Assembly: GCA_028875085.1 (NCBI GenBank)
Contig: JAPPFU010000083.1
Coordinates: 1-26,737 of the forward strand
DNA length: 26,737 bases
Direction: 5' to 3'
DNA from: Chloroflexota bacterium
GTDB lineage: Bacteria; Chloroflexota; Dehalococcoidia; Lucifugimonadales; Australimonadaceae
Of the stretch, positions 17,850 through 23,379 are shown in pieces (within the stretch, counting starts at the first letter, position 1; each line of letters opens with the position of its first letter). The notes under the pieces are model-generated. The model worked only from the letters and a program-made list of their open reading frames with translations. It was not told the DNA's origin and did no database searches. A program made the translations under genes and the position numbers.

Positions 17850-19262
17850 CTACTCCCACTCCCTTACGTCTACGAACCGCCCCGCCACCGCCGCCGCCGC
17901 CGCCATCGCGGGACTGACCAGGTGGGTGCGCCCGCCCTTGCCTTGGCGCCCCTCGAAGTTGCGGTTCGAAGTGGAGGCGCAGCGCTCGCCCGGCTGCAGC
18001 ACGTCGGGGTTCATCCCCAGGCACATGGAGCAGCCCGCCTCCCGCCAGTCGAACCCCGCCTCGCGGAAGACCGCGTCGAGGCCCTCGGCCTCGGCGAGCA
18101 GCTTCGTCTGCGTGGAGCCGGGCACCACCATCGCGTAGACGTCGGGATGCACGCGTCGCCCCTTGGCGACGGCGGCGGCGGCGCGCAGGTCTTCGAGGCG
18201 CGAGTTGGTGCACGAGCCGATGAACACGCGGTCGAGCGCGATGCCCGTGATGGGCGTCCGCGCCTCGAGCCCCATGTACTCCAGCGCCCGCGACGCCGCG
18301 TCGCGGTCTTGCTGCTCCGCGAAGTCGGACGGCGACGGCACGGCGTCCGTAACGGGCACGGCCATGCCGGGGTTGGTGCCCCACGTTACGTAGGGCGCCA
18401 TCTCCGCCGCGTCGATGATCAGCACGCTGTCGTACTCCGCGTCCGGGTCGCTCGGCAGTTGGCGCCAGCGTTCGACCGCCGCGTCCCACTCGTCGCCTTG
18501 CGGCGCGTGGGGGCGGCCTTTCAGGTAGGCGAAGGTGGTTTCGTCGGGCGCGACCATCCCCACGCGCGCGCCCGCCTCAATGGACATGTTGCAGAGCGTC
18601 ATGCGCCCCTCCATCGAGAGGGAGCGGATCGCCTCGCCCGTGTACTCCACGGCGTAGCCCTGCGCCCCGTCCACGCCGATGCGCGCGATGACGCCGAGGA
18701 TGAGGTCTTTGGCGGACACGCCCGTCGGCAGCGCGCCCTCCACCCGTATCTCCATCGTCTTCAGCGGCGACTGCGACAGACACTGCGTCGCCAGCACGTG
18801 CTCCACCTGCGAGGTGCCGATGGGCATGGCGATGGCGCCGAACGCGCCGTGCGTGGAGGTGTGGCTGTCGCCGCACACCACGATCATCCCCGGCTGCGTC
18901 CGCCCCTGCTCCGGCGCGATGACGTGGACGATGCCCTGGTTGGGCGAGTACATGTCGTAGTACTCGATGTCGAACTCCGCCGTGTTCCGCGCCAGCGCGT
19001 CCAACTGCGCCGCCGACACCGCGTCCTCCAGCACCACGTTCCCGCCCGAGCGGTCGTCGGTCGGCACGTTGTGGTCGGCCACGGCGATGGTGAGGTCGGT
19101 GCGGCGTACCTTGCGGTTGTTCAGGCGCAGGCCGTCGAACGCCTGGGGCGAGGTGACTTCGTGGACGAGGTGGAGGTCGACGTAGAGGGTCGCGGGCTGG
19201 CCCGGCTCCTGCCGCACCACGTGGGCGTCCCAAATCTTCTGGAACATCGTTCTCGGCGCCAT
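17850..19262 (-). CDS. leuC: 3-isopropylmalate dehydratase large subunit
   Basis: [54 protein letters not shown] and [12 protein letters not shown]. Confidence 0.97.
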
Positions 19263-19351
19263 CGAGCGGTTGCCTCCTGCGGGTGAAGCGGCCTGCGGGC
19301 CGCAGCGAGCGCCTAGGATAGCCGCTGCGCGGCGGCGGCGCTAGGCGGGGA

Positions 19352-19375
19352 GGGCGACCAGCCGGTTGCCCCTAC
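19352..19375 (-). repeat. Second GTAG-type REP-like hairpin (GTAG-GGGCAACC-GGCT-GGTCGCCC)
   Basis: Plus-strand stem GGGCGACC/GGTTGCCC (8 bp, one G.T) followed by CTAC. The TAG of GTAG is the stop codon of the 380-aa ORF. Confidence 0.6.
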
Positions 19376-20514
19376 GGAGAGGGCGGTAGGGCGCGGATGC
19401 AGTACACACCGGGCTCGGTGGGGATGTCGGAGACCGTCGCCTTCTCCATCGGATGCCAAGCCGACCAGGTGAGGCCATCTATGGCCCCATCTTGCTTGGG
19501 GAACTGCTTGTTGCCCCTCACGAACTCCCTGTTGTCGGAGCGCACGAACCCGGGTAGGCGGCCATAGGCGGCATGGTGCGCCCGGAGAAGCGCTGCCTCA
19601 CGCGCTTCACGAGTGTCTGTCTCTGCCCAGCAGACCTCCAACTGCCATCCGCATTCGATGACTGCCTTCTCAGCCCAAGCGAGGAGGCATTTCCCCTCGA
19701 AGGGTTTACCCTCGGTGTGCTTGACCGCGTGGTCTATCCTTCCGGATAGACGATTGTGTAGGTTGACTCCCTCTCCAATGTAGACCAACTGCCAGGCCGC
19801 CTCACGGGCGAGCCGCGCCCGCTCTCGCCGAACCTGGCGCAGCCAGTCATGGTCGGACTCATGGCCGTAAATGATAGGAATTCCGTCCTCGGTGTGGGTA
19901 GGCCTCTTCCCTTCTCGCTCCCGAAGGAGTTTCTTCCGAAATTCTTCCGCAACGGGACGAAGAAGCTGCCGAATCTCGTCCTTCCAATCCTCGATGGACG
20001 AAGGAGCCTTGGGCTGTGCCGGTGAGACGCTCGCCACGCGGTTGGCATCGCGGCGGATGTTCACCCAACGCTCTTCGCCGCCGAGCGTCATGATAGGGAT
20101 GGCCTCGCACACCGCTGCGATGAGGAAGACGCCGGGCGCCGCCGGGATGTTCGGCAGGTTGCTCTTGTGCATTGCAAGCAGGCCCGACCAGTTCAACGGG
20201 CCGACCTCTCCTTTGACCGTTACGCTGACTTTGTTGCCGGGGCTTCCCTTGAAGGACGGCTTGTAGCCGTGGCGCGCTTCGTGCGCCTCGACCAACGCCG
20301 CCTTGTGGTCGGCTGCGCTCTGGGCGCTCGGAAGCTGCGCCCACATCACCACGCCGTGCCAGCCGTCCGGGTCCTTCGACAGCGTCTTCTCCGCCGGGGA
20401 ACGGTAGCGCTCCGGGTCGGCGATGCGCCGCGCGATGGCCGCCCGCAGGCCTCCGGCTCCGGCTGCGCGGCCGATGTGCACCGCCTCCTCTTCCACGCTC
20501 GCCACGATTGTCAA
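19372..20514 (-). CDS. Hypothetical protein with two internal repeats carrying GIY-YIG nuclease-like motifs
   Basis: 380-aa ORF with a consensus promoter and AAGGAGG upstream; visibly more A/T-rich than the leu genes. Repeat 1: VHIG13-15 ... GNK ... LNWS ... IPAAPGVF. Repeat 2: VYIG245-247 ... NRL ... E306AALL ... YGRLP ... GNK ... LTWS ... IPTEPGVY. Exact start uncertain (TTG). Confidence 0.72.
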   Translation of the reverse strand: MTIVASVEEEAVHIGRAAGAGGLRAAIARRIADPERYRSPAEKTLSKDPDGWHGVVMWAQLPSAQSAADHKAALVEAHEARHGYKPSFKGSPGNKVSVTVKGEVGPLNWSGLLAMHKSNLPNIPAAPGVFLIAAVCEAIPIMTLGGEERWVNIRRDANRVASVSPAQPKAPSSIEDWKDEIRQLLRPVAEEFRKKLLREREGKRPTHTEDGIPIIYGHESDHDWLRQVRRERARLAREAAWQLVYIGEGVNLHNRLSGRIDHAVKHTEGKPFEGKCLLAWAEKAVIECGWQLEVCWAETDTREAREAALLRAHHAAYGRLPGFVRSDNREFVRGNKQFPKQDGAIDGLTWSAWHPMEKATVSDIPTEPGVYCIRALPPSP

Positions 20515-20548
20515 ACGTTCGATGATGCGCCTCCTTATACCGCAGAAT

Positions 20549-20676
20549 TAGCAGCGAATTCGTGGATGAGACGCTGGTTTGCCTTACGGAATGTCCCGTG
20601 CGGAACTAGCGCTCAAATGCGGCGATTATCGCCGTAATCAGCGCTGTTTCTAGCGTCTCGAAACGAGGGAATGCTA
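20549..20676 (+). ncRNA. Candidate structured RNA (long rod ending in a three-way junction); family unknown, strand inferred
   Basis: Hand-folded helices: 20549-53/20672-76, 20559-63/20663-67, 20568-77/20650-59 (10 bp), 20585-89/20596-600, 20607-13/20640-46 and 20618-25/20629-36. Five G.U pairs on + become A.C mismatches on -. Confidence 0.45.
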
Positions 20677-20681
20677 CGCTT

Positions 20682-20710
20682 ATTATACGGGATTCGCCCG
20701 CATTTGTCAA
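20682..20710 (-). promoter_or_regulatory. Perfect consensus sigma70 promoter pointing at the 380-aa ORF
   Basis: TTGACA (20710-20705), 17-nt spacer, TATAAT (20687-20682) on the minus strand. Confidence 0.85.
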
Positions 20711-20749
20711 GCCGCGCCCGTAAATGACTCCCGCATAGCATGCAGCGTC

Positions 20750-20762
20750 GTAGGGACAGGTT
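20750..20762 (+). repeat. Half copy of the GTAG REP at 10652
   Basis: GTAGGGACAGGTT is identical to 10652-10664; the second arm is missing. Confidence 0.62.
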
Positions 20763-20776
20763 GCCTCTTACTCGGG

Positions 20777-22336
<1,560 letters not shown>

Positions 22337-22383
22337 GATGGTTCCCCGTTCGTTCCGTCCGGTGAGCGCCGCAGCGCCCGCGC

Positions 22384-23379
22384 CTAGTGCTGCTTCAAGA
22401 AGGACATCATCTCGCGTAACTGGGCGCCGACCTCTTCGATCTGGTGCCCCGCGTCCTGCTCGCGTAAGCGCTTGAAGCGGTGGCCGCCTTCGTGGTTCTC
22501 GGCGATCCACTCGCGGGCGAACGTGCCGTCCTGTATCTGCGCGAGCACCTGCTTCATCGCCGCGCGCACGTGGTCGTCGACGATGACGGGGCCGCGGGTG
22601 TAGTCGCCGAACTCGGCGGTGTCGCTCACCGAGTAGCGCATGTACTTGAGGCCGCCCTCGTACATCAGGTCGACGATGAGCTTGAGTTCGTGCAGCACCT
22701 CGAAGTAGGCGATCTCCGGCTGGTAGCCCGCCTCGACGAGCGTCTCGAACCCTGCCTTGACCAGCGCCGCCGTCCCGCCGCAGAGCACCGACTGCTCGCC
22801 GAACAGGTCGGTCTCCGTCTCCTCTTTGAAGGTGGTCTGCACGATGCCGGCGCGCATGCTGCCGACGCCCGCGCCGTAGGCGAGCGCGTTGGGCAGCGCC
22901 TCGCCCGACGCGTCCTGGTGGATGGCGACGAGCGCGGGCACGCCGGAACCTTGGGTGAACACCTCGCGCATGCGATGCCCCGGCGCCTTGGGCGCGATCA
23001 TCGACACGTCGACGTCGGCGGGCGGCGTTATCTCCTTGAAGTGGATGTTGAACCCGTGGGCGAACATCAGCGTCTTGGACGAGTCGAGGTGCGGCTCGAT
23101 GGCGCTCTCGTACAGCCCGCGCTGGACGGTGTCCGGAACCAGCACCATGATGACGTCGGACGCCTTGGCGACCTCTTCGGGCAGGGCGACGGACAGGCCC
23201 GCCGCCTCGGCGCGCGCGCGGCTCGACGAGCCCGCGTGCAGGCCGACGACCACGTCGACGCCGTTGTCGCGCAGGTTGAGCGCGTGGGCGTGGCCCTGGG
23301 AGCCGTAGCCCATAACGCCGATGCGCTTGCCCTCCAAGCGCGAGGGGTCCGCGTCCTTCTCGTAGTAGACCGTTGCCAT
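22384..23379 (-). CDS. ilvC: Ketol-acid reductoisomerase
   Basis: [49 protein letters not shown] and [10 protein letters not shown]. Confidence 0.97.

Follow-up and report, generated by a model that had tools for sequence, protein, structure and literature searches.

The spacer between leuA and leuC in a Chloroflexota bacterium (assembly GCA_028875085.1, contig JAPPFU010000083.1) carries the gene of a protein, P0001, that is built from two diverged copies of a permuted domain. Judged from its sequence, P0001 is composed of two paralogous domains of ~140 amino acids, here called unit 1 (A-type) and unit 2 (B-type), separated by a linker of ~100 residues. Each domain is, on the alignments described below, a circular permutant of the DUF7508/UvrC-like GIY-YIG (URI) domain. 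We hold the permuted two-domain architecture and the homology to DUF7508 (PF24348) with strong confidence, and we consider homology of the units to the GIY-YIG superfamily to be highly likely. The explanation that we favour overall, with moderate confidence, is that P0001 is a fusion of two permuted GIY-YIG units with a single active site and that it is encoded by an accessory nuclease cassette. Coordinates without a locus prefix refer to the window, the whole stretch of 26,737 nucleotides (nt) that was analysed; L, P and G denote the loci of relatives, proteins and genomes, respectively.

Two homologous units in one chain

The internal repeat of P0001 is far beyond chance. When the protein is compared with itself using BLASTP, residues 51–135 match residues 289–376 with 34% identity (E = 1e-8). 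A hidden Markov model (HMM) of the single-unit family, built only from single-unit homologues of other organisms with the window rows excluded, recognizes unit 1 at residues 1–137 (127 bits, E = 1.8e-41) and unit 2 at residues 238–378 (153 bits, E = 2.4e-49), while the best score among 200 shuffles of P0001 was 5.8 bits. The self-match and the independent HMM both bear out the tandem repeat of the original prediction, which had been made by reading the sequence. The residues that it had listed are all found at the positions given: H13-I14-G15, W58, K71, G83/P86, G93-N94 and G128-V129-F130 in the first repeat, and Y245-I246-G247, R255, H262, W296, E306, G318/P321, G334-N335 and G369-V370-Y371 in the second. 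A third, degenerate unit within the linker was rejected, as neither the HMM nor Pfam gives a signal there (no Pfam match for residues 136–240).

Circular permutation of a DUF7508-type domain

Most members of the family are free-standing proteins of ~140–170 amino acids that are arranged like each half of P0001. In ~35 representatives the YIG strand comes first and the GVY strand last; these stand-alone units open with '...TIAESVxEELVYIG' and close with 'LxWSxW...IPxxPGVYRIRAxPP'. Because this layout is that of most members, and these are free-standing, the repeat unit is best regarded as an autonomous evolutionary module with YIG first and GVY last. Within each unit of P0001 the GIY and YIG motifs are reversed and lie ~115–125 residues apart (HIG13–15 and GVF128–130; YIG245–247 and GVY369–371). 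The canonical spacing, in which YIG follows the GIY strand after ~10–11 residues, is not found in P0001, which becomes collinear only after rotation. The order of elements is β2 (YIG), α1 (the Arg helix), a further helix, β3, α2 (the Glu helix) and a Gly-Asn hairpin, followed by a short helix (WSxW...IP) and β1 (PGVY), which forms the extreme C-terminus of the unit.

The permutation is established by canonical-order relatives that pass the Pfam DUF7508 model and carry the same motifs. P0045, P0047 and nine near relatives of P0047 (P0052–P0060) have the layout 'WSEWxPLE...LPxxPGVYQV', ~10 residues and then 'VYIGSAxGRGGLxQRL...YEK...E...HGHLPPGN'; P0045 and P0047 score 40 and 29 bits, respectively, against DUF7508, for which the cut-off is 26. 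P0001 itself matches this model only at model positions 6–25, on residues 352–371 (16.6 bits, below the 26-bit gathering score), and unit 2 alone reaches 19 bits, which is likewise below it. If the order of the segments is ignored, homology extends over the whole DUF7508 domain. In hmmsearch the unit HMM matches the canonical proteins as two pieces in swapped order, and hhalign, for which all E-values are those of single pairwise comparisons, places unit columns 15–114 on canonical columns 38–120 (E = 1e-21) and unit columns 121–147 on canonical columns 5–31 (E = 9e-10). When the unit is rotated by placing its C-terminal segment first, a single collinear match of 116 columns is obtained (E = 8e-31, probability 99.9%).

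The DUF7508 sisters (for example P0045, P0047 and P0052) and the P0001 units have in common WSxW...(I/L)PxxPGVY, VYIGSAxGxGGLxxR(L/I), AEK, the Glu helix and HGxLP...GN. They differ in the place of WSxW...PGVY, which is N-terminal and ~10 residues ahead of YIG in DUF7508 but C-terminal in the units. The canonical sisters and the rotation in hhalign therefore confirm the permuted order that had originally been proposed. The preference expressed with it, for permuted units over one canonical domain (GVF130 with YIG245) interrupted by a 110-residue insert, also stands: free-standing units exist, A-type and B-type units are separate adjacent genes at locus L008, and unit 2 is predicted confidently on its own.

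A stretch of ~12 residues ahead of YIG ('LTIAESVxEE') is well conserved in the single units, and MAFFT tends to place it on the PGVY region of the canonical-order proteins. This stretch could be a relic of the first β-strand left by permutation through duplication.

Relationship to GIY-YIG domains and predicted structure

For comparison with a well defined member of the superfamily, the N-terminal GIY-YIG domains of 14 UvrC proteins, taken from the genomes of relatives, served as the reference alignment. In hhalign the rotated unit matches these domains with a probability of 95.4% (E = 1.7e-8, 82 columns) and the canonical DUF7508 group with 91% (E = 1e-6), whereas the unrotated unit matches as two swapped pieces (74% and 24%). 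The alignment pairs PGVY with PGVY, YIG with YVG and Arg with Arg, and E306 coincides with the Glu of UvrC; (L/I)PxxPGVY, YVG/YIG, Arg, Glu and Asn are thus in register in the two families. The profile–profile match to a GIY-YIG domain, on which the original prediction had been staked, therefore appears once the unit is rotated.

Other libraries give weaker matches of the same kind. When 41 units were scanned against Pfam and reported at E ≤ 1, PF01541 was matched in four (best E = 7.8e-4), PF19239 in four, PF20815 in two and PF01986 in three, with best E-values of 8e-4 to 8e-3; the models weakly matched by family members are GIY-YIG, GIY_YIG_domain, GIY_YIG_2 and DUF123. T4 endonuclease II is the top PDB sequence match of the family profile (E = 0.2), although a plain PDB sequence search with P0001 returned apolipoprotein noise only. 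NCBIfam yields matches below the cut-off to UvrC and to GIY-YIG-bearing models, and the protein-language-model neighbours are GIY-YIG, GIY_YIG_2, Eco29kI and DUF7508 clusters. One Atlas cluster is labelled both PF01541 and PF24348. The weak signals from Pfam, PDB sequences, NCBIfam and protein-language-model neighbours thus all point to the GIY-YIG superfamily.

The AlphaFold2 (AF2) model of unit 2 (residues 228–380, 41-row alignment) has a predicted local distance difference test score (pLDDT) of 92 and a predicted template-modelling score (pTM) of 0.86. In model numbering it comprises the YIG strand (15–22), the Arg helix (25–40), a helix (53–60), a strand (64–71), the Glu helix (75–90), a small hairpin, a helix (131–136) and the GVY strand (142–149, pLDDT ~97). 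The model of residues 1–125 of the canonical sister P0047 (pLDDT 93.4) shows a helix (15–18), the GVY strand (26–32), the YIG strand (38–44), helices 49–64 and 67–74, a strand (79–85) and a helix (89–107). Both models contain three long strands with the helices in the expected order; their elements are the same in rotated order, β-β-α-(α)-β-α, as in GIY-YIG domains.

Active-site residues

The five positions of the GIY-YIG catalytic set were compared across the 41 units (Table 1). Unit 2 has the full set (Tyr, Tyr, Arg, Glu and Asn) and unit 1 does not. The column table thus agrees with the original prediction that the degenerate residues lie in the first repeat and the intact ones in the second, and it adds one loss to those listed then, the replacement of Arg by Ala26. 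Unit 1 is predicted to be inactive. The canonical DUF7508 sisters retain every catalytic-type residue, whereas in P0001 only unit 2 does. Sixteen of the 41 units combine Arg, Glu and Asn, against ~5.5 expected if the positions were independent, a figure that is uncorrected for shared ancestry; the full five-residue set is present in ten units, unit 2 of P0001 among them. The joint retention of Arg, Glu and Asn therefore suggests distinct active and inactive classes of unit.

Table 1. Residues at the five catalytic-type positions in P0001 and in the 41 aligned units
Position	Unit 1	Unit 2	All units
Tyr of YIG	H13	Y245	Tyr or Phe in 24/41
Arg	A26	R255	Arg in 23/41
Glu	K71	E306	Glu in 20/41, Lys or Arg in 20/41
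Asn	N94	N335	Asn in 23/41
Tyr of GVY	F130	Y371	Tyr in 36/41

Origin by fusion and the wider family

Separate A-type and B-type genes are found at L008, where the A-type P0008 is followed after 48 nt by the B-type P0051, which has its own ribosome-binding site (RBS), and then by leuC. Sequence identity is 76% between P0008 and unit 1 and 54% between P0051 and unit 2. The maximum-likelihood tree places unit 1 beside P0008 and groups unit 2 with unit 2 of the L001 protein, P0051 and P0010, each with 100/99 support. With its two units thus allied to separate A and B proteins, P0001 is a fusion of two diverged paralogues; a recent internal duplication is rejected by the same tree. Because the two are fused in P0001, A and B probably act together (Rosetta-stone logic).

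P0008 also bears the tail motif that is found near the end of the P0001 linker. Its consensus, '[VI][VI]..(D/E).DH.WL(H/R).VRRER', ends many A-type units (P0008, P0016, P0023 and P0038), and it also ends unrelated proteins encoded upstream of genes in which a unit is fused to an OGG-like domain (L045:3–467, upstream of P0022; L011:3–404, upstream of P0015). The motif may be a docking or DNA-binding peptide. The OGG-like partner is a domain of ~230 residues, with sub-threshold matches to PF21790 (OGG-like) and DUF6308, to which units are recurrently fused or adjacent (P0015, P0022 and P0026). At L044:4738–7328 a 230-residue OGG-like gene, an A-type gene and a B-type gene stand in a row, and at L045:493–2520 a fusion gene of a unit and the OGG-like domain precedes an A-type gene. 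The OGG-like domain and the units may belong to an undescribed multi-component DNA-acting system.

The family is sparsely distributed. A word-indexed search of 5.8 billion proteins found a single homologue, P0003 (locus L001), whereas phmmer, run exhaustively over 1.84 billion representatives, retrieved 46 proteins. In six-frame searches the family was present in five of 61 related genomes, and an even sample of 400 genomes in the phylum added one more genome with a partial match. In most cases a member occurs as a lone unit without a partner gene in its vicinity (L004–L007 and L046 are examples). In one Atlas cluster that is labelled DUF7508 and neighbours the family member P0004, the commonest lineage is Chloroflexota. 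No Pfam model covers the permuted-unit family, and PADLOC and PHROGs gave no match for it; only the adjoining HNH protein of L009 matched nuclease models.

Two neighbourhoods of relatives may be mentioned here. A secreted RCC1-like repeat protein of ~450 residues with a Pro/Thr-rich linker is encoded immediately 5' of a B-type unit gene at L004:2005–3390, L007:2052–3434 and L046:340–1686; one genome, G048, contains two of the three as tandem paralogues. Some DUF7508 sisters, unlike P0001, have a helix–turn–helix (HTH)-like tail and a tyrosine integrase neighbour: at L047:3733–5123 and L048:1230–2620 the canonical protein P0052 carries an HTH-like tail containing CxxC, and a phage-type tyrosine integrase gene lies 30 nt downstream.

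The cassette in the leuA–leuC spacer

The features of the P0001 gene and its surroundings are given in Table 2. The gene stands as X in the row ilvBNC-leuA-X-leuCDB, all on the same strand, between leuA (20777–22510) and leuC (17850–19262). Its reading frame is uninterrupted over its whole length, and its start codon and RBS (GGAGG) are kept in L008 and L001. The guanine–cytosine content of the gene is 0.59–0.66, compared with ~0.70 in the flanks. The ratio of nonsynonymous to synonymous substitution rates (dN/dS) against orthologues is 0.23–0.63, compared with 0.05 for leuC; the gene is thus constrained, although less than housekeeping genes. Residues 138–211 of the linker are common to close orthologues only.

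Table 2. Features of the P0001 gene and cassette (positions in the window)
Feature	Position	Strand	Remarks
Open reading frame (ORF) of P0001, A–B fusion of two permuted GIY-YIG-like (DUF7508-related) units	19372..20514	-	380 amino acids, TTG start
Unit 1 (A-type), residues 1–137	20104..20514	-	Independent HMM, column table, clustering with P0008
Linker, residues 138–237	19804..20103	-	No family match
Tail motif, residues 212–232, IPIIYGHESDHDWLRQVRRER	19819..19881	-	Also in tails of stand-alone A-type proteins
Unit 2 (B-type), residues 238–378	19381..19803	-	Independent HMM, AF2, hhalign to UvrC, column table
Sigma-70-type consensus promoter of the cassette, TTGACA-17-TATAAT	20682..20710	-	12/12 matches
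5' leader, ~170 nt, promoter to start codon	20515..20681	-	Conserved with L008 and L001
Whole cassette, ~1.45 kb	19348..20793	.	blastn break-points; absent from the G001 leuA–leuC spacer

The occupancy of the spacer varies among close relatives. In G001, which belongs to the same genus, it measures 370 nt and contains no ORF of the family; compared with G001 using blastn, the window has unrelated DNA over the extent of the cassette. At L009:461–1609, between the 3' end of leuA and the start of leuC, a gene for a 227-residue HNH endonuclease (PF14279, E = 9e-17) is followed by the B-type unit P0010. L001 has the same leuA-X synteny as the window, with an A–B fusion that contains three frameshifts (L001:7968–9105), and L008 has its separate A and B genes upstream of leuC. 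G001 carries a single unit 20 kb away (L003:1418–1893), in which TGG has become TGA at the invariant Trp of 'SWAE'. A selfish, homing-like element would account for the patchy distribution of the family, the polymorphism of the site, the different nuclease cassettes found there and the pseudogenes, and the spacers taken together suggest that the leuA–leuC site is a hot-spot for nuclease cassettes.

The promoter matches the consensus perfectly, while shuffles average 0.2 sites, and the promoter with its leader is ~78–81% identical in the L008 and L001 cassettes. Transcripts from it could read on into leuCDB. Rfam gave no match at E ≤ 1 on the cassette, leader included. The cassette is flanked by a 9-nt direct repeat, GGTTGCCTC, at 19268–19276 and 20759–20767; as there are 15 repeats of this size within 1.6 kb, it was rejected as a target-site duplication. 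In L001 a perfect hairpin, GTAGGGACAGGTTT-GAA-ACCTGTCCCTAC (L001:7700–7730), marks the upstream border; it is nearly identical in L008 (~600–640), and the window keeps its 3' arm only. Repetitive extragenic palindrome (REP)-like palindromes lie near 19350–19382.

Alternative explanations

Several results weigh against the explanation that we favour, and they bear on three separate questions: the fold, the pairing of strands and the chemistry. The family and DUF7508 could be no homologues of GIY-YIG domains at all, but a separate small α/β fold with convergent motifs. P0001 reaches the threshold of no Pfam GIY-YIG model, every Pfam and NCBIfam match to such models is below the cut-off, and three Foldseek searches, with the unit 2 model against PDB and BFVD and with the P0047 model against PDB, gave no match at E ≤ 0.001. 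Nevertheless, the 91–95% matches to UvrC bring the catalytic motifs into register, the weak matches in four libraries are all to one superfamily, an Atlas cluster shares both labels, and the predicted secondary structure agrees with the GIY-YIG fold. Moreover, the Foldseek matches with the best template-modelling score (TM-score) are to a GIY-YIG enzyme: the P0047 model aligns with CMoRE/PD-T4-3 (9u75 and 9u7u; TM-score only 0.43, 90 columns, 21% identity), a GIY-YIG restriction enzyme of the dimeric or tetrameric class (PMC12923530). A separate fold is therefore very improbable in our judgement. The units could also exchange strands, so that GVF130 completes unit 2 and GVY371 completes unit 1, in trans where A and B are separate proteins. 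Sequence does not separate this pairing from pairing within a unit, the A and B genes co-occur, and the AF2 results were read without coordinates. On the other hand, most members are lone units with no partner gene close by, AF2 folds unit 2 alone with its own C-terminal strand at high confidence, and a homodimeric version of the exchange would yield the same permuted fold. We regard strand exchange as an outside possibility.

Doubt is greater on the question of whether P0001 is an enzyme. The same architecture could belong to an inactivated derivative that binds DNA or protein, such as a regulator or an adaptor of partners like the OGG-like domain or an HNH nuclease, with the residue set of unit 2 as a retained relic. 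Among the 41 units no polar column is invariant; half of them carry Lys or Arg in place of Glu, and 18 have lost Asn. Neither of the nearest relatives of unit 2 has an equivalent of Glu306. In P0051, YIG is replaced by Cys-Leu-Gly, Glu by Arg and Asn by Pro, with the helix Arg kept; in P0010, Lys stands in place of Glu and Ser in place of Arg. At L008 both partners, A and B, look inactive, no DNA-binding domain was recognized in P0001, and the adjacent or fused OGG-like and HNH domains could supply the chemistry. Set against this, the joint retention of Arg, Glu and Asn and of the full set resembles selection on an active site, with unit 2 included, the canonical-order sisters retain all five residues, and the orthologous unit 2 of L001 keeps Tyr, Arg, Glu and Asn. 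Because the nearest relatives are degenerate while this orthologue is intact, catalysis by unit 2 is plausible but not secure. We consider a non-enzymatic protein to be rather unlikely, and catalytic activity of unit 2 on DNA to be a tentative assignment, somewhat short of an even chance. The cassette is affected by a further point of this kind, as its insertion is not clean: ~294 nt of the G001 spacer are replaced rather than interrupted.

Discussion

Under the favoured explanation, a permuted A–B fusion with one active site in an accessory cassette, the two domains would pack as a pseudo-heterodimer in the manner of dimeric GIY-YIG restriction enzymes. A single active site is proposed because only unit 2 has the Tyr/Arg/Glu/Asn/Tyr set; this site would depend on metal and would introduce nicks, or cleave a single strand each time the protein binds DNA, with DNA binding or positioning contributed by unit 1 and by the linker or tail. 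The cassette itself would be a nuclease element of homing-like character, accessory to the genome, transferred horizontally and often in decay. That P0001 is specifically a nickase, as the residue pattern might suggest, seems to us unlikely as matters stand.

Known systems offer partial parallels. The UvrC GIY-YIG domain makes a single-strand incision; P0001 differs from UvrC in being permuted, in having two copies in one chain without the UvrBC-interaction or other UvrC domains, and in lying under the Pfam thresholds. Among the dimeric or tetrameric GIY-YIG restriction enzymes, such as Eco29kI, Cfr42I and Hpy188I, a DNA site is acted on jointly by two GIY-YIG domains, to which the pair in P0001 may be likened. 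However, these enzymes are homo-oligomers of canonical topology with two equivalent active sites, whereas P0001 joins diverged paralogues in one chain and has the catalytic set in one only. The concept is also illustrated by natural heterodimeric restriction enzymes and nickases, such as BbvCI (R1 and R2) and BspD6I (large and small subunits), in which non-identical subunits each address one strand and loss of one catalytic site produces a nickase, although their nuclease fold, PD-(D/E)XK, is unrelated. The cassette recalls the free-standing homing endonuclease genes of T4-like phages, which encode GIY-YIG Seg and HNH Mob proteins: it is a small nuclease-type gene with its own promoter between conserved genes, site occupancy varies in close relatives, different nuclease cassettes are found at one site, and pseudogenes are frequent. 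Unlike those genes, it lies on a bacterial chromosome, lacks an I-TevI-type DNA-binding domain and is not cleanly inserted. A wider proposal is that the family consists of lineage-restricted, naturally permuted GIY-YIG nucleases that function as A/B heterodimers of an inactive and an active subunit, joined in a single chain in P0001, and that their site-specific nicking drives or maintains the mobile cassettes of the leuA–leuC spacer; it is speculative and on balance improbable.

A full-text literature search returned no description of a circularly permuted GIY-YIG domain. If the wider proposal is correct, P0001 and its relatives would represent the first natural permutant of the GIY-YIG fold and a natural pseudo-dimer with a single active site, and the A–B fusion would illustrate the tandem intermediate that is assumed by the 'permutation by duplication' model. 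Both orders, the canonical DUF7508 and the permuted units, survive at ~30% identity together with a fused two-unit protein, which makes this a rare clean natural case for studying the origin of circular permutation and the tolerance of the GIY-YIG fold to rewiring. If unit 2 is active, P0001 would be a single-chain pseudo-dimer with one catalytic site and a natural nickase scaffold for enzyme engineering. The links to the OGG-like domain and the common tail motif hint at a multi-component DNA-acting system that is as yet undescribed. For the organism, the findings suggest that the leuA–leuC spacer is a chromosomal hot-spot of selfish nuclease cassettes in a high-GC, poorly studied lineage that is represented by metagenomes only.

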